NCBI GenBank assembly: GCA_005223035.1
Contig: NJBK01000004.1
Coordinates: forward strand, 40,577-104,576
Length of the DNA: 64,000 nt
Reading direction: 5' to 3'
DNA from: Chloroflexi bacterium B3_Chlor
GTDB taxonomy: Bacteria; Chloroflexota; Anaerolineae; UBA7937; B3-Chlor
Both the position numbers and the translations under genes were made by a program. Below, in pieces: positions 3,628 through 16,533 of the stretch. Position 1 is the first letter of the stretch. Every line of letters begins with the position of its first letter. A model generated the notes under the pieces. That model saw only the letters and a list, made by a program, of their open reading frames with translations. It did not search any database and was not told where the DNA came from.

Positions 3628-3999
3628 ATGAAGGAAGAACGGAGAAGAACCGCCCGTGTCCTCGTTGAGCATCTGGTATCTTATGTTGTCTTGGACGAGC
3701 GGGGAGGAACGGACGAGATGGGCATGGCGCGCACCCTGGACCTGAGTGAGGGAGGCATCGTGTTGGAGATGACGCATTCCCTTGATAGGGGCTCCCACCT
3801 TGAGATGAAGATGGTCAGTGGTGATCATATCCTGGAAGCCAGAGGGCTGGTTGTGTACAGCAAGTACCTACCTGACTACTTACCTGACAACCGTTGGCGC
3901 GTGGGCGTGTCCTTCACCGAGATCACTGAGGGCGATCTGGCCACAATCGCTCAGGAGGTTGAAGAGCGTCGTATGCAGGAGACCAGGGGAGATGCCTGA
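3628..3999 (+). CDS. PilZ domain c-di-GMP-binding protein
   Basis: N-terminal RxxxR motif (MKEERRRTARV) and the D-x-S-x-G-G motif (DLSEGG) diagnostic of PilZ. Alternative ATG at 3613; the ORF track starts at TTG 3589. The stop overlaps the next gene's ATG (ATGCCTGA). Confidence 0.7.
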   Translation: MKEERRRTARVLVEHLVSYVVLDERGGTDEMGMARTLDLSEGGIVLEMTHSLDRGSHLEMKMVSGDHILEARGLVVYSKYLPDYLPDNRWRVGVSFTEITEGDLATIAQEVEERRMQETRGDA

Positions 4000-4507
4000 G
4001 CAGAGAGTGAGTTTCAATGAGGAGCAACTTGAGAGGATGGAGGCCTGTCTTGAGAATCTGCTGACCAAGAGCAAAGGGGTGGCGGTTCTATTCGCCAGCG
4101 CCGAAGGTCAGCCATTTGGACAGGTGGGCAGCCTCAGTGATAAGGACAGGATGGCGCTATCCACCTTGGCTGCGGGTAGCTTCGCGGCCACTGTGGCCAT
4201 GGCCAAGTTGTTGGGACAGGCTGGAGCATTCCAGCAACTCTTCTTTGAGGGCCAGGAGCACAGTGTCTACTCCTCGGCTGTGGGTGAAGGGTCCCTTCTT
4301 ACCATCGCCTTCGGCAGCAGCGCAAAGCCTGGCTTGGTGAGACTCCTGGCCCGGGAAGCCACAAACGAGCTACTGGAGATCGTACGCGAGGCCCGGGAGC
4401 AAGGGATGGAACAGTCTGTTGAGGACCTAATACACGCTGAGTTCGGCGAGTCTTTGGCCGACGAACTGGATGCCCTATTCCCGGAGGGAGGGGAAGGTAT
4501 CGAGTAA
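3992..4507 (+). CDS. Roadblock/LC7 (MglB-like) domain protein
   Basis: MPEQRVSF start overlaps the PilZ stop. Roadblock-type alpha/beta core (GVAVLFASAEGQPFG...AAGSFAATVAMAK). Confidence 0.65.
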   Translation: MPEQRVSFNEEQLERMEACLENLLTKSKGVAVLFASAEGQPFGQVGSLSDKDRMALSTLAAGSFAATVAMAKLLGQAGAFQQLFFEGQEHSVYSSAVGEGSLLTIAFGSSAKPGLVRLLAREATNELLEIVREAREQGMEQSVEDLIHAEFGESLADELDALFPEGGEGIE

Positions 4508-4530: not shown

Positions 4531-4905
4531 ATGGCTGACGGTATCGACCGGCTGTTAGAGGAAACTCTGCGGGGGTTGCGACGGGTTTCGCCGTATGTGG
4601 TAGGTTCGGCGGTGGTTACGGGCGATGGATTTGTGGTCGCCTCTGAGCTACCCGATGAGAACTACGAGAAGAAGGTGACGGTGATGGCCATGGCCATGCT
4701 GACCATGGGGCAGGAGGCTACTGGTGAATTGGGTTCCAGCGATGTGGAGCGGGTCTTGGTGGAGAGCAAGGATAGCTACATCGTGATGGTCAACGCTGGC
4801 CCTGGCGCAATTCTGGCCGCTGTTGCGGAAAAGGAGATCATCTTGGGTCTGCTCTTTGTGGCCATCAAGGAGACAGTGGCCAAAGTCAACACACTGCTGT
4901 ACTGA
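4531..4905 (+). CDS. Roadblock/LC7 domain protein
   Basis: 124 aa. VVTGDGFVVAS...AMAMLTMGQEA pattern typical of Roadblock/LC7. Confidence 0.7.
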   Translation: MADGIDRLLEETLRGLRRVSPYVVGSAVVTGDGFVVASELPDENYEKKVTVMAMAMLTMGQEATGELGSSDVERVLVESKDSYIVMVNAGPGAILAAVAEKEIILGLLFVAIKETVAKVNTLLY

Positions 4906-4918
4906 GGTAAGAGGCCAT

Positions 4919-5329
4919 ATGATGGACGAGAGACCTGAAGGAGCTACGCGTACAGGCGAACCCACTCTAAACCGGATCTTGCGAGAGATGAACGATGAGG
5001 GGCATTTCAAAGCATCGGTCTTGGTCAGCACCGAGGGGTTGCCCCTCTCGTCCGCGTCTTCGCCCTTTGATACTGAAACAATGGCGGCTATGGTAGCCCT
5101 GGTCAAGAACACGATCCAGCAGGCCAGGGAGCATATCGGGTTGGATGAGATAGACGAGGTCTCCATCGTTCAAGGTGACAAGATGCGCCTGATATGCCGG
5201 TACCTCGTCGTCGGGGACGAAGAATTGATACTGTCTGTTATCGCCCCACCTCATCAGACCTACCGGCGCCTGACTAACCGGGCTCTTAGGGAGATCAAGC
5301 GCGTCTGGAGAAGGATCTACGTAGCTTAA
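4919..5329 (+). CDS. Roadblock/LC7 domain protein
   Basis: Starts at internal ATG (MMDERPE). ASVLVSTEGLPLSS...TMAAMVALVKN is Roadblock-like and paralogous to 8110-8493. Confidence 0.65.
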   Translation: MMDERPEGATRTGEPTLNRILREMNDEGHFKASVLVSTEGLPLSSASSPFDTETMAAMVALVKNTIQQAREHIGLDEIDEVSIVQGDKMRLICRYLVVGDEELILSVIAPPHQTYRRLTNRALREIKRVWRRIYVA

Positions 5330-5685: not shown

Positions 5686-7644
5686 GTGGACGAGCATTCA
5701 TCCACGTTGGATTTCCAGAAGGTGATAGAGCTGGTGCTCGACAAGGCGATGCAGGCCACAGATGCCTCGGCAGGGGCCATTGCCGTAGCTAACGAGGAGA
5801 GAACCGGGCTTCTCTTGCTCGCGCACCGGGGTTACCCTGGCCAGGCGGATGCCAAGAGACCCTGGCGGTGGCGCATCGGGACGGGAATAGTGGGAAGGGT
5901 AGTCAAAACGGGTGAACTCTCCCTGGTAAACGATGTCAGCCAAGACCCTGACTACGATGACTTTGTCCCGGAGACCCAGTCTCAACTCACTGTGCCCATC
6001 ATTAGAGAAAATGAGGTGGATGGGGCCATAGTCCTGGAGAGCCCCCGGCTGGCAGGTTTCAGTAGAGGGCAGACAGGCTTCGTTCAGCATCTGGCGGAGC
6101 ATGCGGCCGTGGTCATGGGCAACGCACGGTTGAGTCAGCGACTGATGGAGTCGGAGGAGAGATACCGCATCTACGTGGAGAACGTCCCCTGTGTCATCTG
6201 GGAGGCGGATACCGAGAGTCGCTTCACCTACTGCAGCCCTCAGATCGAGAAGTTGATAGGCTACACTGCTGAAGAACTAGTCGGACACACTCCATACGAG
6301 TTCTTGATACACGCCGATGACGCTGACAAGTTCAAAAAGAGAGTTCGCCAGATGTCAAGAGAAGGAAGAGACGAATACACCTTGCGCCACCGGGCATTGC
6401 ATAGAGATGGTTCCATCCTGCATATCGAGGTAGGCATCAAGCCGGTGTGGGATGACGCTGGCCGGGTGGTCAAGTATCGAGGCGCGGCGCGAGATGTGTC
6501 GCAGCTGGTTGAACTCCAGGCGCAACTCATCCAGTTGGCCAAGCTGTCGGGTATCGGCCAGATGATCTGTGGCGTGGCCCACGAACTGAACAACACTCTG
6601 ACTACGGTCATGGGATACTCGCAACTCCTCCAAGTCACCGATGTGGATGAGGACGTCAAGGAGGACTTGCAGAGGATCTATGACGATGCCTTGCGAGCGC
6701 AACGCATCGTGCAGAACCTCCTCACCTACGCCCGTCAGAAGAAGCCAGAGCACGGGCCGGTAGACATCAATGAAGTCATCGAACACACCCTGGCTCTCAG
6801 GAGGTATCAACTGAAGGTGGACGACGTGGAGGTCGTCACGGAACTGGCCGAGAACTTGCCCTGGACCATGGCCGACAGCTATCGACTGCAGCAGGTCTTT
6901 CTGAACATCACCAACAACGCCCACCAGGCAATCCTCCAGATGGGTAAGGGCGCCTTGACCGTAAGGAGCGAACTCCTGGGTGACGATACTATCCGCGTAA
7001 CCTTTGCCGATACCGGGCCGGGTATACCGCCAGAGGTACTGGACAAGATCTTCGATCCCTTCTTCACCACCAAAGATGTGGGCGCGGGCACCGGGTTGGG
7101 ATTGTCGGTCTCTCACGACATCATTCAGGAGCACGGCGGACGCATCTGGGCTGAGAGCGAGCCAGGCCAGGGAGCGACTTTCATTGTCGAGTTGCCCGTG
7201 AAAAGCTGGCTGCGGGACATAAGTGTACCTTCTCTTGATGAGGAGTATGAGGGGCTACCCTCCAAGAGGCAGAGGATATTGGTGGTGGATGATGAGCAGA
7301 ACATCGTGGACCTGATAGTGGAGGTGTTGAAGGACAGTGGGTATCTGGCTGATGGCGTCACCAGTGCCGAGCTAGCCCTGAGGCTGCTGCACCAGCACAG
7401 GTATGACCTGATCATCTCCGATGTCAAGATGCCCGGCATGGACGGCCCTACCTGCGAGAAAGAAGTGAGGGCGATGGATCCAGAGTTGGCTGAACGGATC
7501 ATCTTCGTCACCGGTGACCTCCTGAGCCCCACTACACAGGCGTTCCTGGAGGAACGGGGGGGACCGTGTCTCGAGAAGCCCTTCGAACTGGAGGAGTTGG
7601 CGAGCCTGCTGAGGAGGGCGCTGAGCGACGATGAGGAGCGCTAG
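5686..7644 (+). CDS. hybrid sensor histidine kinase (GAF-PAS-HisKA-HATPase_c-REC)
   Basis: H-box HELNNTLTTVMGYSQLL, G2 box GTGLGLSVSHDIIQEHGGRIWAESEPGQGATF, C-terminal receiver domain (RILVVDDEQNIV...DLIISDVKMPGMDG). Confidence 0.85.
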   Translation: MDEHSSTLDFQKVIELVLDKAMQATDASAGAIAVANEERTGLLLLAHRGYPGQADAKRPWRWRIGTGIVGRVVKTGELSLVNDVSQDPDYDDFVPETQSQLTVPIIRENEVDGAIVLESPRLAGFSRGQTGFVQHLAEHAAVVMGNARLSQRLMESEERYRIYVENVPCVIWEADTESRFTYCSPQIEKLIGYTAEELVGHTPYEFLIHADDADKFKKRVRQMSREGRDEYTLRHRALHRDGSILHIEVGIKPVWDDAGRVVKYRGAARDVSQLVELQAQLIQLAKLSGIGQMICGVAHELNNTLTTVMGYSQLLQVTDVDEDVKEDLQRIYDDALRAQRIVQNLLTYARQKKPEHGPVDINEVIEHTLALRRYQLKVDDVEVVTELAENLPWTMADSYRLQQVFLNITNNAHQAILQMGKGALTVRSELLGDDTIRVTFADTGPGIPPEVLDKIFDPFFTTKDVGAGTGLGLSVSHDIIQEHGGRIWAESEPGQGATFIVELPVKSWLRDISVPSLDEEYEGLPSKRQRILVVDDEQNIVDLIVEVLKDSGYLADGVTSAELALRLLHQHRYDLIISDVKMPGMDGPTCEKEVRAMDPELAERIIFVTGDLLSPTTQAFLEERGGPCLEKPFELEELASLLRRALSDDEER

Positions 7645-8109
7645 CTGCTCCTCCTTCGGGAATCGAGGGCCAGTTGCCCGAACAGCCTCGGCGACGCGGT
7701 GGCAAGAGGTAGTGTGATCTGGTCGGAGTGTCCCCGTAACTGCAAGGCATCCTTTCATTGGACAAACAGCACGGGAAAGGAGACATAGCATCGCCGAGAG
7801 AGATGTGGCGGACAACGCGTGTTGTGTCTCTATCAGAGTGTACTGATTGTAGCTCTCGGGCGATCCAAGGCTCATCGGACCGCTTTGTGATGCTTGAACC
7901 GCCGTTGAGATTGAAGCGCCCCATACTGCAGAACGCAGACGATGATCCAAGTGCGGCTCGGCGGTACCTCGTGGCGGAACTAGAGGACAGGCAGATAGGC
8001 CGGCAACGAAAGACGAGGACGGAGCCACCTTTCTCATAGCTCCGCGACGAAGGTGATGAGGTGCGCTGGCAAAGTTTGTGCCCGGGTGCCGGCTACTCAA
8101 GTTTGCAGG

Positions 8110-8493
8110 CTATGATCCTTCGACCATAGCGTGCCAGGCCAGCTTGAGATCCTTGATAGCTCGGTTGGTCAGTTGTCTATAGTAGCGTCGGTGGCTGGGC
8201 ACCACAACGGCCAGGATGAAATCCTCACCGTTCATGGTGAAGCAGCGGCAGACCAGCCGTATGTGATCGCTGGCCCTGACAGAGACCTCGTCAACCTGGG
8301 CCAATCCGACATGCTCCCGTGTCTCTCGTGCCACACGTCTCAGCAGGGCGACCATTGCAGATGTGGTATCAACGTCATAGTCGGAGGGCACTGTGGCGAT
8401 GGGTAGGCCATCACTGCTTGCGAGCACCGAAGCCTCGAAGTCACCTTCTTCGTTTATCCGCTCCAAAGCCTTTTCGAGAGGTCTGTCTGCCAT
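8110..8493 (-). CDS. Roadblock/LC7 domain protein
   Basis: 127 aa Roadblock-like (ASVLASSDGLPIAT...TSAMVALLRRV). Sits 5 nt after mglA on the minus strand. Confidence 0.7.
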   Translation of the reverse strand: MADRPLEKALERINEEGDFEASVLASSDGLPIATVPSDYDVDTTSAMVALLRRVARETREHVGLAQVDEVSVRASDHIRLVCRCFTMNGEDFILAVVVPSHRRYYRQLTNRAIKDLKLAWHAMVEGS

Positions 8494-8497
8494 TGGG

Positions 8498-9070
8498 CTA
8501 GATTCTGGATACCACCAGGTTGATTGCTGCTTTCAAGGTCTCTATCACCCCTACCCCCTCTGTCGCCACAGACTGGAACTGAGGGACGCCGTCGCGGGCC
8601 AGCTGCATCTGCAGAAGTGCAACGGGGGCTCTCGTTGGCAGATCTCGCTTGTTGTACTGCAGAACGAGGGGAAAATCGTGAAGACTCACCCCCAGTGCCC
8701 GCAGGTTCTCCTCCAGGCTGCGCATGGTGTCCATGTTTGCCTTGAGCCTATTGAGTTGAGAGTCGGCCACATAGACCACCCCGTCCGCACCCTGCAGAAC
8801 AAGTCTTCGGCTGGCCACATAGCATGGCTGGCCCGGCACAGTATAGAGATTGAACTTGGGCTTAAGTCCTCGGATTCGCCCCAGTTCCAATTGCATAAAA
8901 TCGAAGTACAAAGTGCGATCACCTCTGGTCTTGAGGCATATTAGCTCTCCTCTCTGCCTGGGATTGGTCCTGGAGTGAATGCACTGCAAGTTGGTGGTCT
9001 TGCCGCTGAGAGATGGGCCATAATACACAATCTTGAGGTTGATCTCACGCATTTTCCAGTTGATGAACAT
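8498..9070 (-). CDS. mglA: MglA-type Ras-like small GTPase
   Basis: P-loop GPSLSGKTT. Collinear full-length near-identity, from memory, to Myxococcus MglA: FINWKMREINLKIVYYGP, DRTLYFDF, YTVPGQ, VVYVADSQ, LQYNKRDLP. Confidence 0.9.
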   Translation of the reverse strand: MFINWKMREINLKIVYYGPSLSGKTTNLQCIHSRTNPRQRGELICLKTRGDRTLYFDFMQLELGRIRGLKPKFNLYTVPGQPCYVASRRLVLQGADGVVYVADSQLNRLKANMDTMRSLEENLRALGVSLHDFPLVLQYNKRDLPTRAPVALLQMQLARDGVPQFQSVATEGVGVIETLKAAINLVVSRI

Positions 9071-9106
9071 GGTGCCCCCTACGAAAAATGCGGTGATCCC
9101 TCTCTA

Positions 9107-9589
9107 TCAAGCAAAGGCCTCATCTAGCCCCTGAGCCAGTGCGCCGCGAAACTCTCGGTCCACCACGGCGCTGGCCTTCTCCAGCCACGGTTCCAGCTCG
9201 GAGGCCACTTCAAGGAGTTCGTTGACTGCCAGTCTGGCGAAGATGCGCACCAAGCCGATTTGCGTCATCTCATCAAAGATGATAGCCAGCAAGAAACTCG
9301 CACCAATGGCAGAGATGTAGATGTGACGTCTCTGTCCCTCGTGGAAGAGGTAGGAGAATGGGGCTGGCTCGTCCAACTGTCTGGCTATCTCGGCGGTAGC
9401 AGCCATGTTGCTGGCGGTCAGCGCGGCGAGAGCGGACGTATCCAACCCCTCGTTGTTTCCTTTCTCACTGATCAGCTGTCCGCTAATGTCCGCCAACAGG
9501 ACGCACAGGGCCCTACTTCTATTGAGCAACCTGTCGAGACAGTTCTCTATCTTGATAAAGGGCTCACGAGGGGGGATCAGAGTTTCCAT
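9107..9589 (-). CDS. mglB: MglB-type Roadblock/LC7 GTPase-activating protein
   Basis: Immediately upstream of mglA on the same strand. Shows the GQLIS, D-TSALAALTASNMAA, FHEG and GLVR blocks seen in MglB. Confidence 0.8.
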   Translation of the reverse strand: METLIPPREPFIKIENCLDRLLNRSRALCVLLADISGQLISEKGNNEGLDTSALAALTASNMAATAEIARQLDEPAPFSYLFHEGQRRHIYISAIGASFLLAIIFDEMTQIGLVRIFARLAVNELLEVASELEPWLEKASAVVDREFRGALAQGLDEAFA

Positions 9590-9615
9590 CTTCCGTTTTC
9601 CTCATCAGTGGCTTC

Positions 9616-10782
9616 CTACTCTTCAGGCAAATCGTACCAGCGTCTAGCCTCGCCAATCCTGGCCCTTGCCTGCCAGCGCAGGGACTTTGGTGCAGCCTCG
9701 ATGATCTCACTCAGCTGACGGGCCCTTGAGACATAGACTTCCTTCTCCCGCGCCGGGAGGAAATCATCTACCAGGTCGATGCTTTTCTCAATGTTCAAAG
9801 TAACGGTCCTATACCAACCCCAGTCGTCGCCGCACGTGGAGGCGATGAAGTCTGCGTCCACCTTATGTACATTGTCTCCTTTGCCCAACTCGTGATCGTA
9901 GAGAATGGCGTAGATGTCCCTCAAATCTTTCTCTCCCATCTGCACGATCTGCAGTTTCGACAAGAGCAAATCTGCCAATGGAAGGGTGATCTCGTGCAGC
10001 TCGAGGCGGTTGGTGAAGGACAGTTGGTGACACATATGAAAGGTGTCCACAAATACATCCAAGGCGACACCTTCTTGGGGATCTGAATACTTCAAGCGTT
10101 TATGTCCATGGAAGGCGTTGAAGCGGCGGTGGGGTTCGTATCCCAGAGTCTCTATCACTTCCTCCAACCCTCGCCGTTGCCTACCATATACGGCAAGATC
10201 AAGATCAAGCCCATCAGGCGGCAAGGTCATGTCAGCGGCGCTGGGACAGATCGCCTTGACGGCTATGCCTCCCAAGAGGCGCAAATGGACGCCTCGATTC
10301 TCAGCAGCAGCGATGGCCTGGCGGGCACGAGTAAGTAGCAGGTCGGCGGCATCGGCCGGGAGTTCCGGCTCAATCACGGCCACCTCTTCAGCCGCCGCTG
10401 GAGGAGCGCTTGGGACCGGGGCCTCTCTTTCTTTCAGGATTTCAGAGAGCTTCCTCGCAGCCACGTTGGCGGTGAGGTTCAGAAGAGGGACATTTACAGT
10501 ACGCACGCAGAGGATATAGAGGCAGCCAACACGCAAATTCTTGACCACCATCCTCCCTTCTCCGAATACCAGATCCAACTCGTGGACCCTGCGCCGCCTT
10601 GTGGTCTCCAGTCCGTCGATGGTTTGCAGAATCGTGCGTGCTGCTGGCAAGAACGTGGCCTCATCGAAGACAGACGGCAGAGCACGGGCCACTAACCTGC
10701 CTTCGGGGTCGCAAACGAACGATCCGGTTACCCCCACGACGGCATTGATGTCCTGCAGTATCTTTTCCATGGTCGCCCCCAA
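9616..10782 (-). CDS. Roadblock/LC7 domain fused to a pol-beta-superfamily nucleotidyltransferase (NTP_transf_5-like) domain
   Basis: N-terminal ~120 aa are Roadblock-like (INAVVGVTGSFVCDPEGRLVARAL). The C-terminal part carries LRLLGGIAVKAICPSAADMTLPPDGLDLDLAVY...LGYEP, matching the hG[GS]...DhDh nucleotidyltransferase signature. Confidence 0.6.
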   Translation of the reverse strand: MGATMEKILQDINAVVGVTGSFVCDPEGRLVARALPSVFDEATFLPAARTILQTIDGLETTRRRRVHELDLVFGEGRMVVKNLRVGCLYILCVRTVNVPLLNLTANVAARKLSEILKEREAPVPSAPPAAAEEVAVIEPELPADAADLLLTRARQAIAAAENRGVHLRLLGGIAVKAICPSAADMTLPPDGLDLDLAVYGRQRRGLEEVIETLGYEPHRRFNAFHGHKRLKYSDPQEGVALDVFVDTFHMCHQLSFTNRLELHEITLPLADLLLSKLQIVQMGEKDLRDIYAILYDHELGKGDNVHKVDADFIASTCGDDWGWYRTVTLNIEKSIDLVDDFLPAREKEVYVSRARQLSEIIEAAPKSLRWQARARIGEARRWYDLPEE

Positions 10783-10786
10783 GGAA

Positions 10787-11476
10787 CTAGCCCAAGATCG
10801 TGGCCGCTTCGGCGCTAACCAGGGCCGGTGAAGCTTTCTCGCTCAACGACAAACCTGCAAAAAAGGCTGGCCGTTCTAGGATAAGCATTCTGTCTTTACC
10901 CATGGTAACCAGCCCCCAGTCAAAGGGCGTGAGACTCATGGCATTCCCGAACTCGGCGGCCGCATTGCCCACGAAAACGGCCACAGCGCCCTCCTTTTCC
11001 GGGTTGCCGTCAATGTCACTTGCGAAAACGATGCCATCGCGTGAGATGATGACTGATCCCTCGACGCCCATTACGTTCTTGAGTTCGTGAGCCAGAGTCG
11101 CCATCTCATCCGCAGCTGCCGGCAATTCCATCGCAGGTGCAACCTCTGCCGGTCGCTCAACCGAAGCTTGCTCTTCGTCCATGCGGCGTATTCCCTCCAG
11201 AAGGAGGCTGTTCCAGCTGGTGGAGACCGTTCTCTCGGACGGTATTGTACCGGCCTCCACAACGAAGGAGCCATCGGGCCAGCTCAGGAGTTCGTAGACA
11301 GCCTCTTCACCCACCACATCCCCCACCGCGGCATGAACGATGGCTCCGTCGGCGAAACAGATGATTCCCGTCTTGCCCTGGTACGTCAGAGACACCGTGG
11401 CGGTGTTCATCTCGGTACAATTAATCTGAATTATGTTCGTGAGGCCTAGCTCTTTGAGGCTTCCTTCAACAGGCAC
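10787..11476 (-). CDS. DUF4388 (PATAN-type) domain fused to a Roadblock/LC7 domain
   Basis: The N-terminus GSLKELGLTNIIQ...GKTGIICFADGAIVHA...GEEAVYELLSWPDGSFVV matches the DUF4388 consensus. The C-terminal ~110 aa are Roadblock-like (VEGSVIISRDGIVFAS). Confidence 0.6.
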   Translation of the reverse strand: MPVEGSLKELGLTNIIQINCTEMNTATVSLTYQGKTGIICFADGAIVHAAVGDVVGEEAVYELLSWPDGSFVVEAGTIPSERTVSTSWNSLLLEGIRRMDEEQASVERPAEVAPAMELPAAADEMATLAHELKNVMGVEGSVIISRDGIVFASDIDGNPEKEGAVAVFVGNAAAEFGNAMSLTPFDWGLVTMGKDRMLILERPAFFAGLSLSEKASPALVSAEAATILG

Positions 11477-12082
11477 TTACGTCTTCCTTTCCTTGGGCTG
11501 CTGTCGACTTCTCTTGCGCCAGCGCATCAGGTCTCCTTTTTGCGGTTCACCCGATCTCCGACTCTGCATCGGGGGCCGGCTCCTTTCCTCGAAGACGTCG
11601 TCCAGCTCCTTACTCAGAGACGCCGCAAAGTCGGAAGCAAGGGTCTCTCTAGGCTTGGTGGTTTCTGTCTCGGCGACGATGCGCAAGAGATCCTGGATGC
11701 TTCTCTTGATGTAGAGCCAGACCATACCGATCTTTGGTGCATATGTTTGCCTGTCGAAAACGAGGACTAGAAAGAGACCGCTGGCGATGTTGGAGGCGTA
11801 TATGTCGTATCGTTCGCCTTCGTGGAACGTAAGGTTGAAGGTTCTACGTGTCTCATTCAGCTGACGTGACATCTCGGAGGTCGTGGCGAAGCTGGCAGCC
11901 AAGAGGGAGACGATGGTGGTGATGTCCAAGTTCGCAGCACTCCCGGCCTGCGCGATGATCTGACCCATCGTATCCACCATAACCACGGCGGCAGCGTCAG
12001 CTTCGACAAGAAGCTCTCTTAGTCTTCTGGTAATGGCCTCCAGATATTCGCCTGAAAGAGATGAAACCCTTTTCTGCGCCAT
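11477..12082 (-). CDS. Roadblock/LC7 domain protein with basic C-terminal tail
   Basis: AAVVMVDTMGQIIAQAG...TTIVSLLAASFATTSE is Roadblock-like. First gene after the internal promoter at 12223-12251. Confidence 0.6.
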   Translation of the reverse strand: MAQKRVSSLSGEYLEAITRRLRELLVEADAAAVVMVDTMGQIIAQAGSAANLDITTIVSLLAASFATTSEMSRQLNETRRTFNLTFHEGERYDIYASNIASGLFLVLVFDRQTYAPKIGMVWLYIKRSIQDLLRIVAETETTKPRETLASDFAASLSKELDDVFEERSRPPMQSRRSGEPQKGDLMRWRKRSRQQPKERKT

Positions 12083-12222: not shown

Positions 12223-12251
12223 AGTATACCACATTTCTAAGGGTATGTCAA
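12223..12251 (-). promoter_or_regulatory. sigma70-like promoter TTGACA-N17-TATACT, read on the minus strand
   Basis: Plus-strand tgtcaa at 12246-12251 and agtata at 12223-12228 are separated by exactly 17 nt. Lies about 140 nt upstream of the Roadblock gene that starts at 12082. Confidence 0.5.
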
Positions 12252-12311: not shown

Positions 12312-14126
12312 CTAGCCAGCACCTCTGGAGTCAGCGGGTAAGCGTACAGTAAAGGTCGAGCCTTCGCCCACCTCACTCTTGACTTCTATCCTCCCGCCAT
12401 GTCTTTCAACGATACCGTGGCTTATGGAGAGGCCTAGGCCTGTACCCCTTGCCTTAGTGGTATGGAAGGGGTCAAAGATGTTGGCCAGATCCGACACCGG
12501 GATCCCCTCTCCAGTATCGGTGAAGCTGATGCTTGCTTCACCACGTTTGTCATCCCAAACAGTGTCTATGTACAGGTCACCACCTTCGGGCATTGCTTCA
12601 ACAGCGTTGATAATGATGTTGAGAAATACTTGCTTGAGGAGACTGCTGAGGCCGTTCACCAGGGGCAATCGCGAGGTCGCGTGTCGATGCACCACTACCT
12701 GCGCGTGTTGGATTCTCTTTCCAGCCAGAGACAGAACATCGTCGAGAATGGCCTGGATATCTACTGGTGCCACGCTCTCCGTGGAGGGCCGATAGAAATC
12801 CAGTATGCGTTGCACCAGATCAATGAGTCTTTGGACCTCTTCTTGTGCCATGGAGAGATAATCCTGCCGTCTGCTCTCATCCAGGGAGGGCTTGTGAGTG
12901 ACCAGATGCAGACAGTTATGAATCGCCTGCAAGGGGTTGTTGATCTCATGAGCCAAGGAAGCAGCTAGCTTCCCGGTGGCGGCCAACTTCTCGGCCCTTA
13001 CGAGTTGGATCTGGGACTTCTCCAACTCGCGGGTGAACTCGGCAAGCTCAGTGTAGAGGCGAGCATTCTCCAGCGCGACGGCGACCGTAGCCGCCATGGA
13101 GTTCAACAGCTCCAGGTCTTCGTGAGTGAATTCCCCATCCAGTTTATTGACGAGTTCAATGGCTCCGATAATGTGGTCTTTGATCACCAGGGGTACGCAC
13201 AGGACGGAGCGGCACTCCAGGCCAAACTTCTCACTGGCTTCTCGATAATGGCGCGGGTCAGCACTCACCTCAGGAACCAGGACAGGTTCTCCCTCCTTGA
13301 CCACCCACCCAGCGATCCCTTGTCCTACCTGGAGCTTCAGCGGCGCGGTTTGTCGCACATCACCGTGCAGACTCATGCGAAAGACGAGTTCGTTCGTGGT
13401 TTCGTCAAATAGCAGGAGGGAGCCAGCCTCGGCCCTCACAATCTCATTGATACCCAGCATAGCCAGGCGAAGCACTTCATCGAGGTCAAGTGTGGAAATC
13501 ACGACTCGCCCCAGTTCATTCAGTGCAGCCAGTTGGCTGGTTCTGTTCTTGGTTGCCTCGTGGATGCGGGAGTTCTCGATGGCGATGGCAACTTGACCGG
13601 CCAAGACGGAGAGGAGTTCTAGATCATGGTCGCGGAAAGGGGAATCGGGGGTAGTCTTGCTGGCGTTCAGCACCCCGATGATTCGTCCTTTGATCTTGAG
13701 CGGCACACAGAGGGCGGAGGCCACGTCCTCTCGGTGCATGGCTTCGCGTACGCTAGGCTCAACCGGGGCGTCATCGGTTAGTAGCAAAGGCTCTCCGTTC
13801 TCGATCACCCAGCCAGATATTCCTTCCCCAATCTTCGCCTTGGCGGAACCTATGACCGCTTTGGGCAGCCCTACAGCAGCCTCGACGCATAGCTCTTGCT
13901 TCTTCTCATCCAACAACATGAGGGAAACCACATCAGCGCCGGTCTCTCGCTCAACGATCTCGAGGATGAGTTCGTAGAGGCGTTCAATCTCCACCTCGGA
14001 CAGTAGCGTCTCGCTGACCTCGAGGAGAGGCAGGAGAGCCCCAAGGCGCTCCCCATTCCGATACGGAGCCTGGACGTCTGGGATGTTCATGGTGGACATA
14101 ATCATCCTCCATTGGTATTCTATCAT
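12312..14126 (-). CDS. sensor histidine kinase (GAF-GAF-HisKA-HATPase_c)
   Basis: Two GAF-like regions, H-box HEINNPLQAIHNCLHL, G2 box GTGLGLSISHGIVERHGGRIEVKSEVGEGSTF. Alternative start at M10 (14099) with GGAGG 6 nt upstream; M1 has GAGGAAG 6 nt upstream. Confidence 0.85.
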   Translation of the reverse strand: MIEYQWRMIMSTMNIPDVQAPYRNGERLGALLPLLEVSETLLSEVEIERLYELILEIVERETGADVVSLMLLDEKKQELCVEAAVGLPKAVIGSAKAKIGEGISGWVIENGEPLLLTDDAPVEPSVREAMHREDVASALCVPLKIKGRIIGVLNASKTTPDSPFRDHDLELLSVLAGQVAIAIENSRIHEATKNRTSQLAALNELGRVVISTLDLDEVLRLAMLGINEIVRAEAGSLLLFDETTNELVFRMSLHGDVRQTAPLKLQVGQGIAGWVVKEGEPVLVPEVSADPRHYREASEKFGLECRSVLCVPLVIKDHIIGAIELVNKLDGEFTHEDLELLNSMAATVAVALENARLYTELAEFTRELEKSQIQLVRAEKLAATGKLAASLAHEINNPLQAIHNCLHLVTHKPSLDESRRQDYLSMAQEEVQRLIDLVQRILDFYRPSTESVAPVDIQAILDDVLSLAGKRIQHAQVVVHRHATSRLPLVNGLSSLLKQVFLNIIINAVEAMPEGGDLYIDTVWDDKRGEASISFTDTGEGIPVSDLANIFDPFHTTKARGTGLGLSISHGIVERHGGRIEVKSEVGEGSTFTVRLPADSRGAG

Positions 14127-14180: not shown

Positions 14181-14307
14181 TGCGAGGGCCGTGGCTTCCC
14201 CATCGAAGGACCGGCTCGGGAACCTTTTGGTGGCTTTCTGCGTCTTGTAGTCGAAAGAGATCTAAGTGGGCCACAGGACCCCGACGCAAACTGAGAGGAG
14301 GCGAAAG

Positions 14308-16533
14308 ATGAAATCGAAAATGCTGCTCATAGTCCTCGTGCTTGCGGGGCTGCTTCTCTCCACTGGCGGAGCGGCTTACGCAGATGGTGTGGTAATAATC
14401 GAACCTCCGCCTGGTGTACCGCCCCCTGACACCCCCAATCTGGTCGTCAAGTACCATCGGGTCTCGGTGGATATCAGCGATCAGGTCGCGACGACCGAAG
14501 TGGATCAAGTCTTCCTCAATGATACTCGCTACGATCTGGAAGGGATCTACATCTTTCCCTTGCCTGAGGAAGCGGCCGTCTCGGAGTTCGCAATGTATGT
14601 GGATGGTGAAAGATGGGAAGGGGAGATCCTACCTCGCGACGAGGCGCGCAGGATATATGAGGACATCGTGCGCCGCCGCCTCGATCCGGCTCTTCTGGAA
14701 TATGTGGGGCGTGATACCTTCAAGGCCAGCATATTCCCCATCGAGCAGGGCGATGAACGCAGGGTGGAATTGACGTACAGCCAAGTATTGGAGAACGACG
14801 GAGGGCTGATCAAGTATGTCTATCCCCTGGACACCGAGCGTTTCTCTGCACGCCCCCTGGAAGAGGTAGTAATCACAGTACGAGTTCACTCCGCACAGCC
14901 GATTAGGGCCATCTATTCTCCCAGCCACGACGTTGCCATAGACCGCGTAGATGAGCACACGGTTAATGTCAGTTTTGAGGCCGCGAATGTCCTTCCCGAC
15001 CGCGATTTCGAACTATACTACACCGTCTCCGACGACGATTTCGGGTTGAACCTCCTCAGCTACCGGGAGCGTGGAGGGGATGGCTTCTTTTTGCTGCTGG
15101 TCGCGCCCAAGGTCGAGGTGGACGAGAGGGATGTGGTAGCCAAAGATCTGATTTTCGTCCTTGATACCTCTGGGAGCATGGAGGGAGAAAAGATAGCTCA
15201 GGCCAAAGATGCTCTGGAGTTCATCCTCGACCATCTGAACCCCGAGGACCGCTTCAACATCGTGGCTTTCAGCACAGGTGTGAGGACCTACGCTAGAGGG
15301 CTACAACGCGCGGCGGAAGGCGATGACGCCCGCAGGTTCATCGACGATTTGCGTGCCGTCGGCGGGACAAACATAGACCTTGCGCTGGCCGAGGCTCTGG
15401 CCATGGCCGACGGTGAGCGCCCGCAGATCATCATCTTTCTGACCGATGGCTTGCCCACCGAGGGAGTCACCGATACCGATAGGATTATCGCCAACGTGAG
15501 CCGGCAGGCTTCAGAGAACATCAGGATCTTCGCCTTCGGCCTGGGCGATGATGTAAACACCTTCTTGTTGGATACCATCGCGCAGGACAACCGGGGAGTC
15601 AGTTCCTACGTGCGCCCTCGTGAGAGCATAGAGGAGGAGGTGTCCACTTTCTACGCCACGGTGAGTATGCCTTTGCTGGCGGACATAGACTTGGACTTCG
15701 GCGACCTGCGGGTCGAAGATACCTATCCCTATCCTCTACCCGACCTGTTTGCGGGCACCCAGCTGGTTGTGGCTGGCCGCTACCGGGAAGGGGGCAGGAC
15801 GGACATCATCCTGCGCGGCGAGGTGAACGGAGAAGAGCAAGAGTTCGTGTATGAGAACCTCCGCTTCAGCGATAGAGGTGGTGAGACCTTCATCCCTCGG
15901 CTGTGGGCCACGCGGAAGATAGGGTACCTCCTCAATCAGATAAGGTTGCACGGTGAGGGGCGGGAGTTGATCGACGAGATCGTGGATCTGAGTGTGCGGT
16001 ACGGAATCATGACCCCGTACACCTCCTTCCTGGTTGAGGAAGAGCAAGACATCTTCACCCCTGAGGGGCGAGAGGAAGCGGCCACGGAGATGTGGCATCA
16101 AGCCACGGCCGTCCCCGCGCCGATGGTCGGTGCCGGGGCGGTACAGGACGCCGAGAACCGAGAGGCGCTACGTTCGTCTGAGAAGGTGCAGGACAACACC
16201 GAGCAGATCAAGTACGCCAGGGACAAGGTATTCGTCCTGCGGGATGGCATCTGGACCGACACCACCTATGATGGCTCCACTGAAACGGTGAAGGTGGGCT
16301 TCGGCAGCGATGACTACTTCGCCTTGTTGGGGACCCACGCGGGGTGGGGGCACTACTTCTCCGTGGGGCAGCAAGTGATCGTAGTGCTAAACGGAGTGGC
16401 CTACCAGGTGTCTGAGGGCGACTATCCCTCGATAGACATGCCGGCCACGCCGCCTTCCCCAGATACGGTTCTTACCCCGTGGGACCTACTCGTAGAGCTA
16501 GTGCAATGGCTGTTGAGCCTGCTGCCCGGATAG
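14308..16533 (+). CDS. secreted VIT (vault/inter-alpha-trypsin) plus von Willebrand factor A domain protein
   Basis: ATG 14308 with GGAGG 6 nt upstream. Signal peptide MKSKMLLIVLVLAGLLLSTGGAAYA. MIDAS motif LDTSGSM. The ORF track starts at an upstream GTG (14266). Confidence 0.8.
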   Translation: MKSKMLLIVLVLAGLLLSTGGAAYADGVVIIEPPPGVPPPDTPNLVVKYHRVSVDISDQVATTEVDQVFLNDTRYDLEGIYIFPLPEEAAVSEFAMYVDGERWEGEILPRDEARRIYEDIVRRRLDPALLEYVGRDTFKASIFPIEQGDERRVELTYSQVLENDGGLIKYVYPLDTERFSARPLEEVVITVRVHSAQPIRAIYSPSHDVAIDRVDEHTVNVSFEAANVLPDRDFELYYTVSDDDFGLNLLSYRERGGDGFFLLLVAPKVEVDERDVVAKDLIFVLDTSGSMEGEKIAQAKDALEFILDHLNPEDRFNIVAFSTGVRTYARGLQRAAEGDDARRFIDDLRAVGGTNIDLALAEALAMADGERPQIIIFLTDGLPTEGVTDTDRIIANVSRQASENIRIFAFGLGDDVNTFLLDTIAQDNRGVSSYVRPRESIEEEVSTFYATVSMPLLADIDLDFGDLRVEDTYPYPLPDLFAGTQLVVAGRYREGGRTDIILRGEVNGEEQEFVYENLRFSDRGGETFIPRLWATRKIGYLLNQIRLHGEGRELIDEIVDLSVRYGIMTPYTSFLVEEEQDIFTPEGREEAATEMWHQATAVPAPMVGAGAVQDAENREALRSSEKVQDNTEQIKYARDKVFVLRDGIWTDTTYDGSTETVKVGFGSDDYFALLGTHAGWGHYFSVGQQVIVVLNGVAYQVSEGDYPSIDMPATPPSPDTVLTPWDLLVELVQWLLSLLPG

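Follow-up and report, generated by a model that had tools for sequence, protein, structure and literature searches.

In the Chloroflexi bacterium B3_Chlor, a Roadblock/LC7 domain and a nucleotidyltransferase (NTase) domain of the pol-β fold are encoded as one protein by a gene located at positions 9616..10782 (−) of a 64,000-nucleotide stretch of contig NJBK01000004.1 (this whole stretch is hereafter called the window, and its positions are used throughout). The Roadblock–NTase fusion is real, conserved and widespread in Chloroflexota. What is new here is a Roadblock-based GTPase module with an NTase-fold accessory subunit. [quoted passage not shown] No description of a Roadblock–NTase fusion was found in the literature searched, including the combinations of Roadblock, MglA and small GTPases with nucleotidyltransferases; this agrees with a preliminary description of the same DNA, made from the sequence, which was not aware of any. 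All the analyses were computational, and the organisms are uncultured and represented by metagenome-assembled genomes (MAGs).

The open reading frame encodes 388 aa if translated from a TTG codon at 10782. The likelier start is the ATG codon at 10770 (M5 of the target), which gives a protein of 384 aa and is favoured because (i) an identical NCBI protein, the hypothetical protein CEE40_02005 from the MAG "Chloroflexi bacterium B3_Chlor", has 384 aa; (ii) the alignment of orthologues begins at M5; and (iii) a Shine-Dalgarno-like GGGGG run lies 5' of this ATG. More than 1000 database proteins match the target and nearly all of the 120 matches listed are full length, with annotations limited to "hypothetical" or "Roadblock/LC7 domain-containing". 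The preliminary description had proposed to look for the same fusion in other genomes, and it is indeed present, also at full length, in 45 distinct genes of species-representative genomes. An assembly or frameshift artefact was ruled out, full-length homologues being plentiful. There are also longer variants of the fusion (P0023, P0035, P0050 and P0055; 466-478 aa), with about 80 extra residues and a precomputed PF26309 annotation.

The N-terminal part of the protein, residues 1–120 (10423..10782, −), had been described as Roadblock-like, a claim that holds at the level of fold: the Roadblock α/β/α arrangement is present, with a helix, two strands, a long helix and three strands. The domain belongs to a distinct subtype with an invariant motif, NVPLLNLTAN, at residues 97–106. 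Its score against Robl_LC7 (PF03259) was 12.6 bits (E=0.12; residues 6–37 only), under the gathering threshold of 23 bits. Among the fused orthologues scanned with PF03259, no matched stretch passed alone (P0066 reached 23.6 bits overall), while three orthologues (P0061, P0077 and P0117) carry a precomputed PF03259 annotation and a paralogue with an additional C-terminal region (L017:1589-2377) passes at 23.4 bits. The Roadblock domain is followed by an Ala/Pro/Glu-rich linker (approximately residues 121–144; 10351..10422, −), whose length and sequence vary among orthologues. In the full-length AlphaFold2 (AF2) model, with a predicted local distance difference test score (pLDDT) of 86.7, two well-folded domains are separated by a disordered linker, for which the pLDDT is <50 over residues 121–139. 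According to this model, the Roadblock N-terminus is flexibly tethered to the pol-β-fold NTase domain. Both Pfam matches of the target, that of the Roadblock domain and that of the NTase domain, are sub-threshold when a single sequence is used, and the two folds were settled by structure prediction.

The NTase domain, together with its C-terminal helical subdomain, occupies residues 145–388 (9619..10350, −). The preliminary description had assigned it to the NTP_transf_5-type nucleotidyltransferases, of which the fold and the distant family relationship were sustained and formal Pfam membership was not. Its minimal NTase α/β fold is present in the target. The match to NTP_transf_5 (PF14907; E=1.6e-4) scored 21.8 bits with the full protein and 22.6 bits with the C-terminal domain alone, against a cut-off of 31.2 bits, and it spans the catalytic core only (profile positions 53–147 of 249). 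Since the score of the query falls under the gathering threshold, the query is best regarded, on profile comparison, as a distant relative of NTP_transf_5, in a distinct and poorly covered branch, and as no formal member of it. An orthologue (P0066) reaches 29.1 bits, and a paralogue from Anaerolineae (L050:7947-8729), which shares 47% identity with the query domain, passes the PF14907 cut-off with 35.7 bits. When the query domain and 31 standalone representatives were scanned against Pfam, 22 of the 32 matched NTP_transf_5 and no other relevant family was found. Residues 140–388 were used as the query of an exhaustive search with phmmer, which yielded 1951 clusters at 50% identity, 1310 of them at E≤1e-10; by far the most are standalone proteins, ~245–270 aa long, that match over their entire length.

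The nearest solved structural relatives of the NTase domain are nucleotidyltransferases of the MenT/AbiEii type and of the ANT(2'')/Lnu type; the top 60 structural matches do not include DrrA or GlnE, which are the protein AMPylators known with this fold. Searching the PDB sequences with a family profile gave weak, non-significant matches to ANT(2'') and LnuA (E 0.26–0.65), aligned exactly over the GG…DxD core, and phmmer with the full protein as a single sequence gave nothing meaningful against the PDB. Fourteen residues are invariant among the query domain and the 31 standalone representatives (33–48% identity): G171, D193, D195, N222, D242, K276, Q278, D289, W321, G322, K366, W370, R373 and G377. 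As read from the alignment, this set includes the pol-β signature, that is, hG[G/A], DxD and a third Asp. The family also has K-L-Q and K/R-D-x-x-D elements which resemble motifs III and IV of AbiEii/DUF1814, and it shares with DUF1814 the peculiarity of an Arg four residues before DxD; its architecture thus parallels motifs I–IV described for AbiEii/DUF1814 (PMC3985639).

In the target, motifs I–II are formed by G171-G172 … D193-L-D195 (10198..10272, −), with a spacer of 20 residues instead of the canonical 9–13 and with P189 in the place of the motif-II Arg. The G…DxD motif quoted in the preliminary description, GGIAVKAICPSAADMTLPPDGLDLDLAVY, starts at G171 and contains D193 and D195, both intact in the target and its clade. 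The hG[GS] motif corresponds to L170-G171-G172, of which G171 is kept in 139/140 standalone homologues and 121/123 fused ones, and G172 in 129/140 standalone homologues. The third catalytic carboxylate, D242 (10057..10059, −), is kept in 137/140 standalone homologues. Further downstream in the protein, K276-L-Q278 (motif III-like) and K285-D286-L-R-D289 (+DxxD, motif IV-like) are encoded at 9916..9957 (−); judged by pattern, the former fits just the K-L start of KLxAaxxR and the latter fits +DxxD. Among the 140 standalone homologues, G171, D193, D195, D242, K276, Q278 and D289 are each conserved in at least 98%, and the motif-II Arg in 132. The query and its clade retain every family motif except this Arg.

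This intact clade comprises 80 of the top matches and includes 13 species-representative fused genes plus L019. The 80 intact fusions keep G171, G172, D193, D195, D242, K276, Q278, D286 and D289 at a conservation of 97% or more for each residue. Since D193, D195 and D242 had served to define the intact set, the observation is independent for the remaining six alone. Only 30% of the domain columns of the clade reach at least 97%, with divergence down to ~39% identity. This pattern of conservation leads us to infer that the active site of the query clade is under purifying selection.

The gene lies within a compact series of genes on the same strand. Immediately upstream is a gene for a 229-aa protein with a PATAN (DUF4388) and a Roadblock domain (10787..11476, −; PATAN E 5.8e-21 in Pfam), whose stop codon is separated from the likely ATG of the target by 16 nt, and this is preceded by a gene for a 201-aa MglB-like Roadblock protein (11477..12082, −). 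As the preliminary description had stated, the target gene is directly upstream of mglB–mglA, and both are true orthologues: MglB (160 aa; 9107..9589, −) matches that of Myxococcus xanthus with E 1e-22 and the small GTPase MglA (190 aa; 8498..9070, −) with E 1.4e-63. Target, mglB and mglA lie on one strand with spacings of 26 nt and 36 nt, and a gene for a small Roadblock protein of 127 aa (8110..8493, −) follows. A GAF-GAF-HisKA-HATPase sensor kinase gene (12312..14126, −) adjoins the cluster upstream, a position in which it is conserved solely within the clade whose NTase motifs are intact. A promoter-like site (TTGACA-17-TATACT with a TG extension; 12223..12251, −; 11/12 matches) is located in the 229-nt gap between the kinase gene and the gene for the 201-aa Roadblock protein, and a terminator-like hairpin (8019..8045, −) just 3' of the last Roadblock gene. 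These two sites, each a consensus match only, flank six genes and suggest a six-gene operon separate from the kinase. This apparent operon contains the target, mglB, mglA and genes for three further Roadblock proteins.

The genomic context of the NTase family was scanned in one genome per species, which yielded 78 loci. Essentially all of them are from Chloroflexota, i.e., Anaerolineae/Anaerolineales, Thermoflexus, Chloroflexia, Ca. Aquidulcis and Thermomicrobium (the latter with standalone forms); the exceptions are bins labelled as Acidobacteria (L065, L068) and Solirubrobacterales (L056). A PATAN–Roadblock gene is directly upstream of 38 of the 42 fusion genes (out of 45) with enough upstream sequence. 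The gap between both genes has a median of ~20 nt, and they overlap in some loci. In Thermoflexus and several other lineages, the PATAN–Roadblock gene and the fusion gene are found as a pair only. The complete seven-gene arrangement, GAF kinase included, is strictly kept in the intact-site clade of the query.

The association between these domains is also seen in other combinations. A metagenomic protein of 370 aa (P0246) is a direct PATAN(DUF4388)–NTase fusion without Roadblock, with degenerate motifs (D-S, Q-L-E); as a composite protein, it offers Rosetta-stone-type support for a functional link between PATAN and NTase. Fusion-bearing Anaerolineae MAGs also have standalone NTase paralogues, often a few kb from Roadblock proteins of the same subtype, as well as from a short PATAN gene and a second NTase paralogue of ~298 aa. 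Since the three co-occur both fused and unfused, PATAN, the Roadblock subtype of the target and the NTase family can be considered, from their gene contexts, a recurrent trio, which is the strongest functional clue available. Outside Chloroflexota, the standalone members L083:6001-6807 and L084:6001-6777 had no Roadblock, PATAN or GTPase neighbours.

Several variations on this context deserve a separate mention. The position of the 201-aa gene is occupied elsewhere by a REC–Roadblock gene of 360–460 aa (L003:984-2243, +; also L019, L020, L069 and L081); the query clade has instead a GAF histidine kinase upstream of a receiver-less Roadblock protein. In L050:11191-12105 (−), and similarly in L052, L053, L054 and L076, the Roadblock subtype of the target is fused to a V4R small-molecule-binding domain, and these Roadblock–V4R genes are neighbours of the standalone NTase paralogues, the short PATAN gene and the ~298-aa NTase paralogue. 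The Roadblock subtype is also duplicated in tandem (L075:7409-8632 and 8919-10214; L028:1076-1603 and 1663-2895; L017:420-1586 and 1589-2377; L071, L074 and L078): Ca. Aquidulcis has two consecutive fusion genes, both degenerate, and other tandem loci have Roadblock-only proteins of 208 aa or forms of 262–277 aa with an extra C-terminal region, which directly follow the PATAN–Roadblock gene or the fusion gene. Both standalone members, L083 and L084, have in their vicinity a gene for a 2-hydroxyacid dehydrogenase and another, unannotated, of ~300–317 aa. Finally, P0132, in which an NTase domain with an intact site follows another N-terminal region, was considered as an independent Roadblock–NTase fusion and not retained as such, since hhalign of its N-terminal 122 aa against the alignment of the fusions revealed no resemblance to Roadblock (probability 0.15%).

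The explanation that we prefer, and to which we give roughly even chances, is that the target, docked through its Roadblock domain, serves a PATAN/Roadblock/MglA signalling module of Chloroflexota as an accessory subunit with two heads, which may be catalytic in the query clade and non-catalytic in other lineages. Roadblock domains are homo- or heterodimeric platforms for small GTPases (MglB2–MglA, Ragulator). PATAN is an output domain which binds components belonging to the motor of type IV pili (10.1101/2021.06.11.447907). The Roadblock domain of the target would pair with its counterpart in the PATAN–Roadblock protein, the most likely partner, to which the target is translationally coupled, and the paired platform would carry a PATAN head and an NTase head and engage MglA/MglB. 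In B3_Chlor, this platform would work with MglA/MglB and the further Roadblock proteins, under the GAF sensor kinase. Because its active site appears to be under purifying selection, the NTase head of the query clade probably still binds NTP·Mg2+ (NTP, nucleoside triphosphate) and passes the nucleoside monophosphate (NMP) on to an acceptor within the complex or close to it. Across the majority of the other lineages, the NTase domain would be a non-catalytic binding module acting through its invariant C-terminal helical subdomain.

A number of observations weigh against this explanation, above all against its catalytic part. When clustered at 50% identity, 11 of the 12 representatives of Roadblock–NTase clusters are degenerate in all motifs and only the cluster of the query is intact; the conservation of the catalytic Asp residues, on which the preliminary description had let its proposal depend, is therefore kept in the query clade and lost in most fused lineages. 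As most fusion clusters are degenerate, we conclude that the role shared by the fusions does not require catalysis. The motif-II Arg is missing in essentially all fusions, the query included, with one of the 12 cluster representatives (P0122) having it, and the equivalent R63A substitution abolishes the toxicity of AbiEii (PMC3985639). Every member of the NTase family that was looked up is annotated as "hypothetical protein". As for the proposed assembly, the heterodimer with the PATAN–Roadblock protein is deduced from gene adjacency only, the AF2 full-length model has no confident interdomain packing (predicted template modelling score, pTM, 0.63), and MglA is encoded within ±8 kb at just 23 of the 45 fusion loci. 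A screen for Ser/Thr/Tyr residues of the potential partners (MglA, MglB and the other Roadblock proteins) that follow the intact or degenerate state of the NTase gave nothing convincing. The candidates that it did offer (Y139, T170 and S188 of MglA, and several residues of the 201-aa Roadblock protein) were discarded as modification sites, being confounded by phylogeny; furthermore, M. xanthus MglA likewise has a Tyr at the position of Y139.

Degeneration affects about two-thirds (~30/45) of the fused genes from species-representative genomes. In degenerate fusions D193 is gone, usually along with G172, D195, K276 and D289, and the replacements differ among lineages: (i) E-x-N with H242 (L003/L018); (ii) G-x-E (Thermoflexus); (iii) I/Y/M-x-E (RBG_13_68_17 and relatives); and (iv) G171 changed to D or N elsewhere. 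All five of the NTase architectures with neither Roadblock nor PATAN are intact. The metagenomic protein P0236 (570 aa) has an intact-motif NTase followed by a C-terminal phosphoribosyltransferase domain (Pribosyltran, E 1e-14), which hints at nucleotide chemistry, or chemistry related to phosphoribosyl pyrophosphate (PRPP), for the standalone family. In a neighbour-joining tree, the query clade is placed beside the clade of Anaerolineae standalone paralogues and degenerate sites appear in at least three separate fused groups. The tree is distance-based, without support values, and it is used here just for the conclusion that, as the sequences are read, catalytic loss happened in more than one fused lineage. 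The C-terminal helical subdomain (9634..9822, −) follows a different pattern: its ten invariant residues (W321, G322, T326, N330, K366, W370, R373, G377, W382 and Y383) are the same in standalone, intact-fused and degenerate-fused proteins. Hence, to judge by conservation, the function common to all fusions probably resides in this subdomain.

These same data lend weight to another explanation, which we consider possible, if clearly less probable: that no Roadblock-fused NTase is catalytic, the target included, and that the domain is a pseudoenzyme or scaffold which binds a ligand or partner through the helical subdomain, as a nucleotide sensor or as a docking surface for protein or RNA. Such a role would account for the loss of motifs I–IV in most fused clusters and in the majority of the species-representative fused genes, for the absence of the motif-II Arg in nearly all fusions, for the degenerate state of the PATAN–NTase fusion P0246, and for a helical subdomain that is invariant whatever the catalytic state. 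Nevertheless, the conservation of the metal-binding carboxylates and of K276, Q278, D286 and D289 (at least 97% in the 80 sequences of the query clade) is unexpected if catalysis had been abandoned there, and the motif-II Arg is naturally missing from other active pol-β NTases as well (PMC3985639). The preliminary description had suggested covalent or nucleotide-based control of MglA, a proposal that found no evidence for MglA as substrate and that sits uneasily with a PATAN–Roadblock protein as the near-constant partner. In its broader form, it holds that MglA, MglB or another Roadblock partner covalently receives a nucleotide (AMP or GMP) from the NTase head, which would thereby control the GTPase switch, as DrrA does with Rab1. 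The architecture is analogous to that of DrrA, where a single chain combines an NTase domain with a domain that regulates a GTPase (PMC3950522), the query clade has an intact catalytic site and the operon is shared with mglB–mglA; but half of the fusion loci are without a nearby MglA, fusions linked to MglA are often catalytically dead (e.g., L001 and L003), no Ser/Thr/Tyr of a partner tracks the catalytic state, and the NTases of DrrA or GlnE type are not among the structural neighbours, all of which makes this form of control unlikely. Equally doubtful, for the moment, is the wider picture of an active NTase that, in this Anaerolineae clade, covalently nucleotidylates MglA or a Roadblock regulator: bacteria would then have their own equivalent of the DrrA-type AMPylation of Rab GTPases, and the dead orthologues would be descendants that, as pseudoenzymes, retained substrate binding only.

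Two further activities known for the NTase fold have to be weighed, and both seem very improbable. An RNA nucleotidyltransferase like MenT/AbiEii would add nucleotides to tRNA or other RNA, with the Roadblock domain putting this activity under the control of the GTPase module. The motif III-like (K-L-Q) and motif IV-like (+DxxD) elements do resemble those of DUF1814 and the invariant aromatic and basic C-terminal residues could conceivably bind nucleic acid, yet there is no AbiEii/DUF1814 Pfam match at E≤1, no antitoxin-like neighbour, no PADLOC match to a defence system and no motif-II Arg. A reading of the locus as a defence or toxin–antitoxin system was rejected on the same grounds of PADLOC and antitoxin neighbours. 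The chances are just as slim for a signal-nucleotide synthase whose small nucleotide second messenger would be the output of the module, in the manner of CD-NTases or RelA/SpoT-type synthetases: synthase-type matches are weaker than the MenT and ANT ones, the cluster has no evident gene for a cognate receptor or effector, and the frequent loss of catalytic residues argues against an essential synthase role.

Comparison with known systems helps to delimit the accessory subunit proposed here. The closest one is the MglA/MglB polarity module of M. xanthus and Thermus thermophilus (with its Roadblock paralogue MglC), whose MglA and MglB have orthologues in the same operon as the target; the target cluster differs in its five Roadblock proteins, its PATAN domain and the adjacent GAF sensor kinase. 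In a survey of prokaryotic MglA/MglB systems by Wuichet and Søgaard-Andersen, only REC–Roadblock fusions are mentioned (PMC4316618). The PATAN domain of the upstream partner gene is shared with the PATAN regulators (PatA-type response regulators of cyanobacteria), but here it is fused to Roadblock, not to REC, and paired with a Roadblock–NTase protein. With regard to the NTase domain, the sole Pfam family that it matches is NTP_transf_5, defined as an "uncharacterised nucleotidyltransferase", on whose function nothing relevant was found in the literature searched. In contrast to the MenT/AbiEii (DUF1814) toxins, the target has neither their Pfam match (E≤1), nor the motif-II Arg, nor an antitoxin gene or a defence or toxin–antitoxin context, and it carries invariant W/K/R motifs of its own in the C-terminal helical subdomain. 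From ANT(2'')-Ia and LnuA it is distinguished by the lack of an antibiotic-resistance context and by a helical subdomain of ~110 residues that is absent from those enzymes. DrrA, finally, is secreted and acts as an effector on a GTPase of the host. In Legionella DrrA/SidM, an NTase-fold domain is covalently joined to a regulator of small GTPases, which is conceptually the situation in the target: NTase and GEF domains are in one chain, and the protein AMPylates Rab1 (PMC3950522). However, the regulator of DrrA has a GEF fold while that of the target is a Roadblock domain.

A second signalling cluster of the window, in divergent orientation, comprises genes for two Roadblock proteins of 229 aa and 168 aa (3818-4507, +; 4823-5329, +), each of which exceeds the Pfam threshold; after them comes the gene for a GAF-PAS-HisKA-HATPase-REC hybrid kinase (5686-7644, +). 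No second GTPase was detected within the window. Altogether, the region encodes, in ~10 kb, a single MglA alongside seven Roadblock proteins and two sensor kinases. On the other side, divergent from the GAF kinase gene, 14266-16533 (+) encodes a VIT–von Willebrand factor A protein whose N-terminus has a segment of signal-like or transmembrane type.

Regarding what the fusion means for Chloroflexota, a Roadblock domain tethered to an NTase-fold head would add a new class of accessory protein, conserved across the phylum and paired with a PATAN output protein, to the regulators of the MglA/MglB type. The fusion could provide covalent or nucleotide-dependent control where the site is intact, and a pseudoenzyme adaptor where it is degenerate. 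By its links to PATAN and Roadblock, genomic as well as of the Rosetta-stone kind, it also sets a large and uncharacterised NTase family in a functional context for the first time, and the repeated catalytic loss after fusion makes it a clean natural experiment in the evolution from enzyme to pseudoenzyme.

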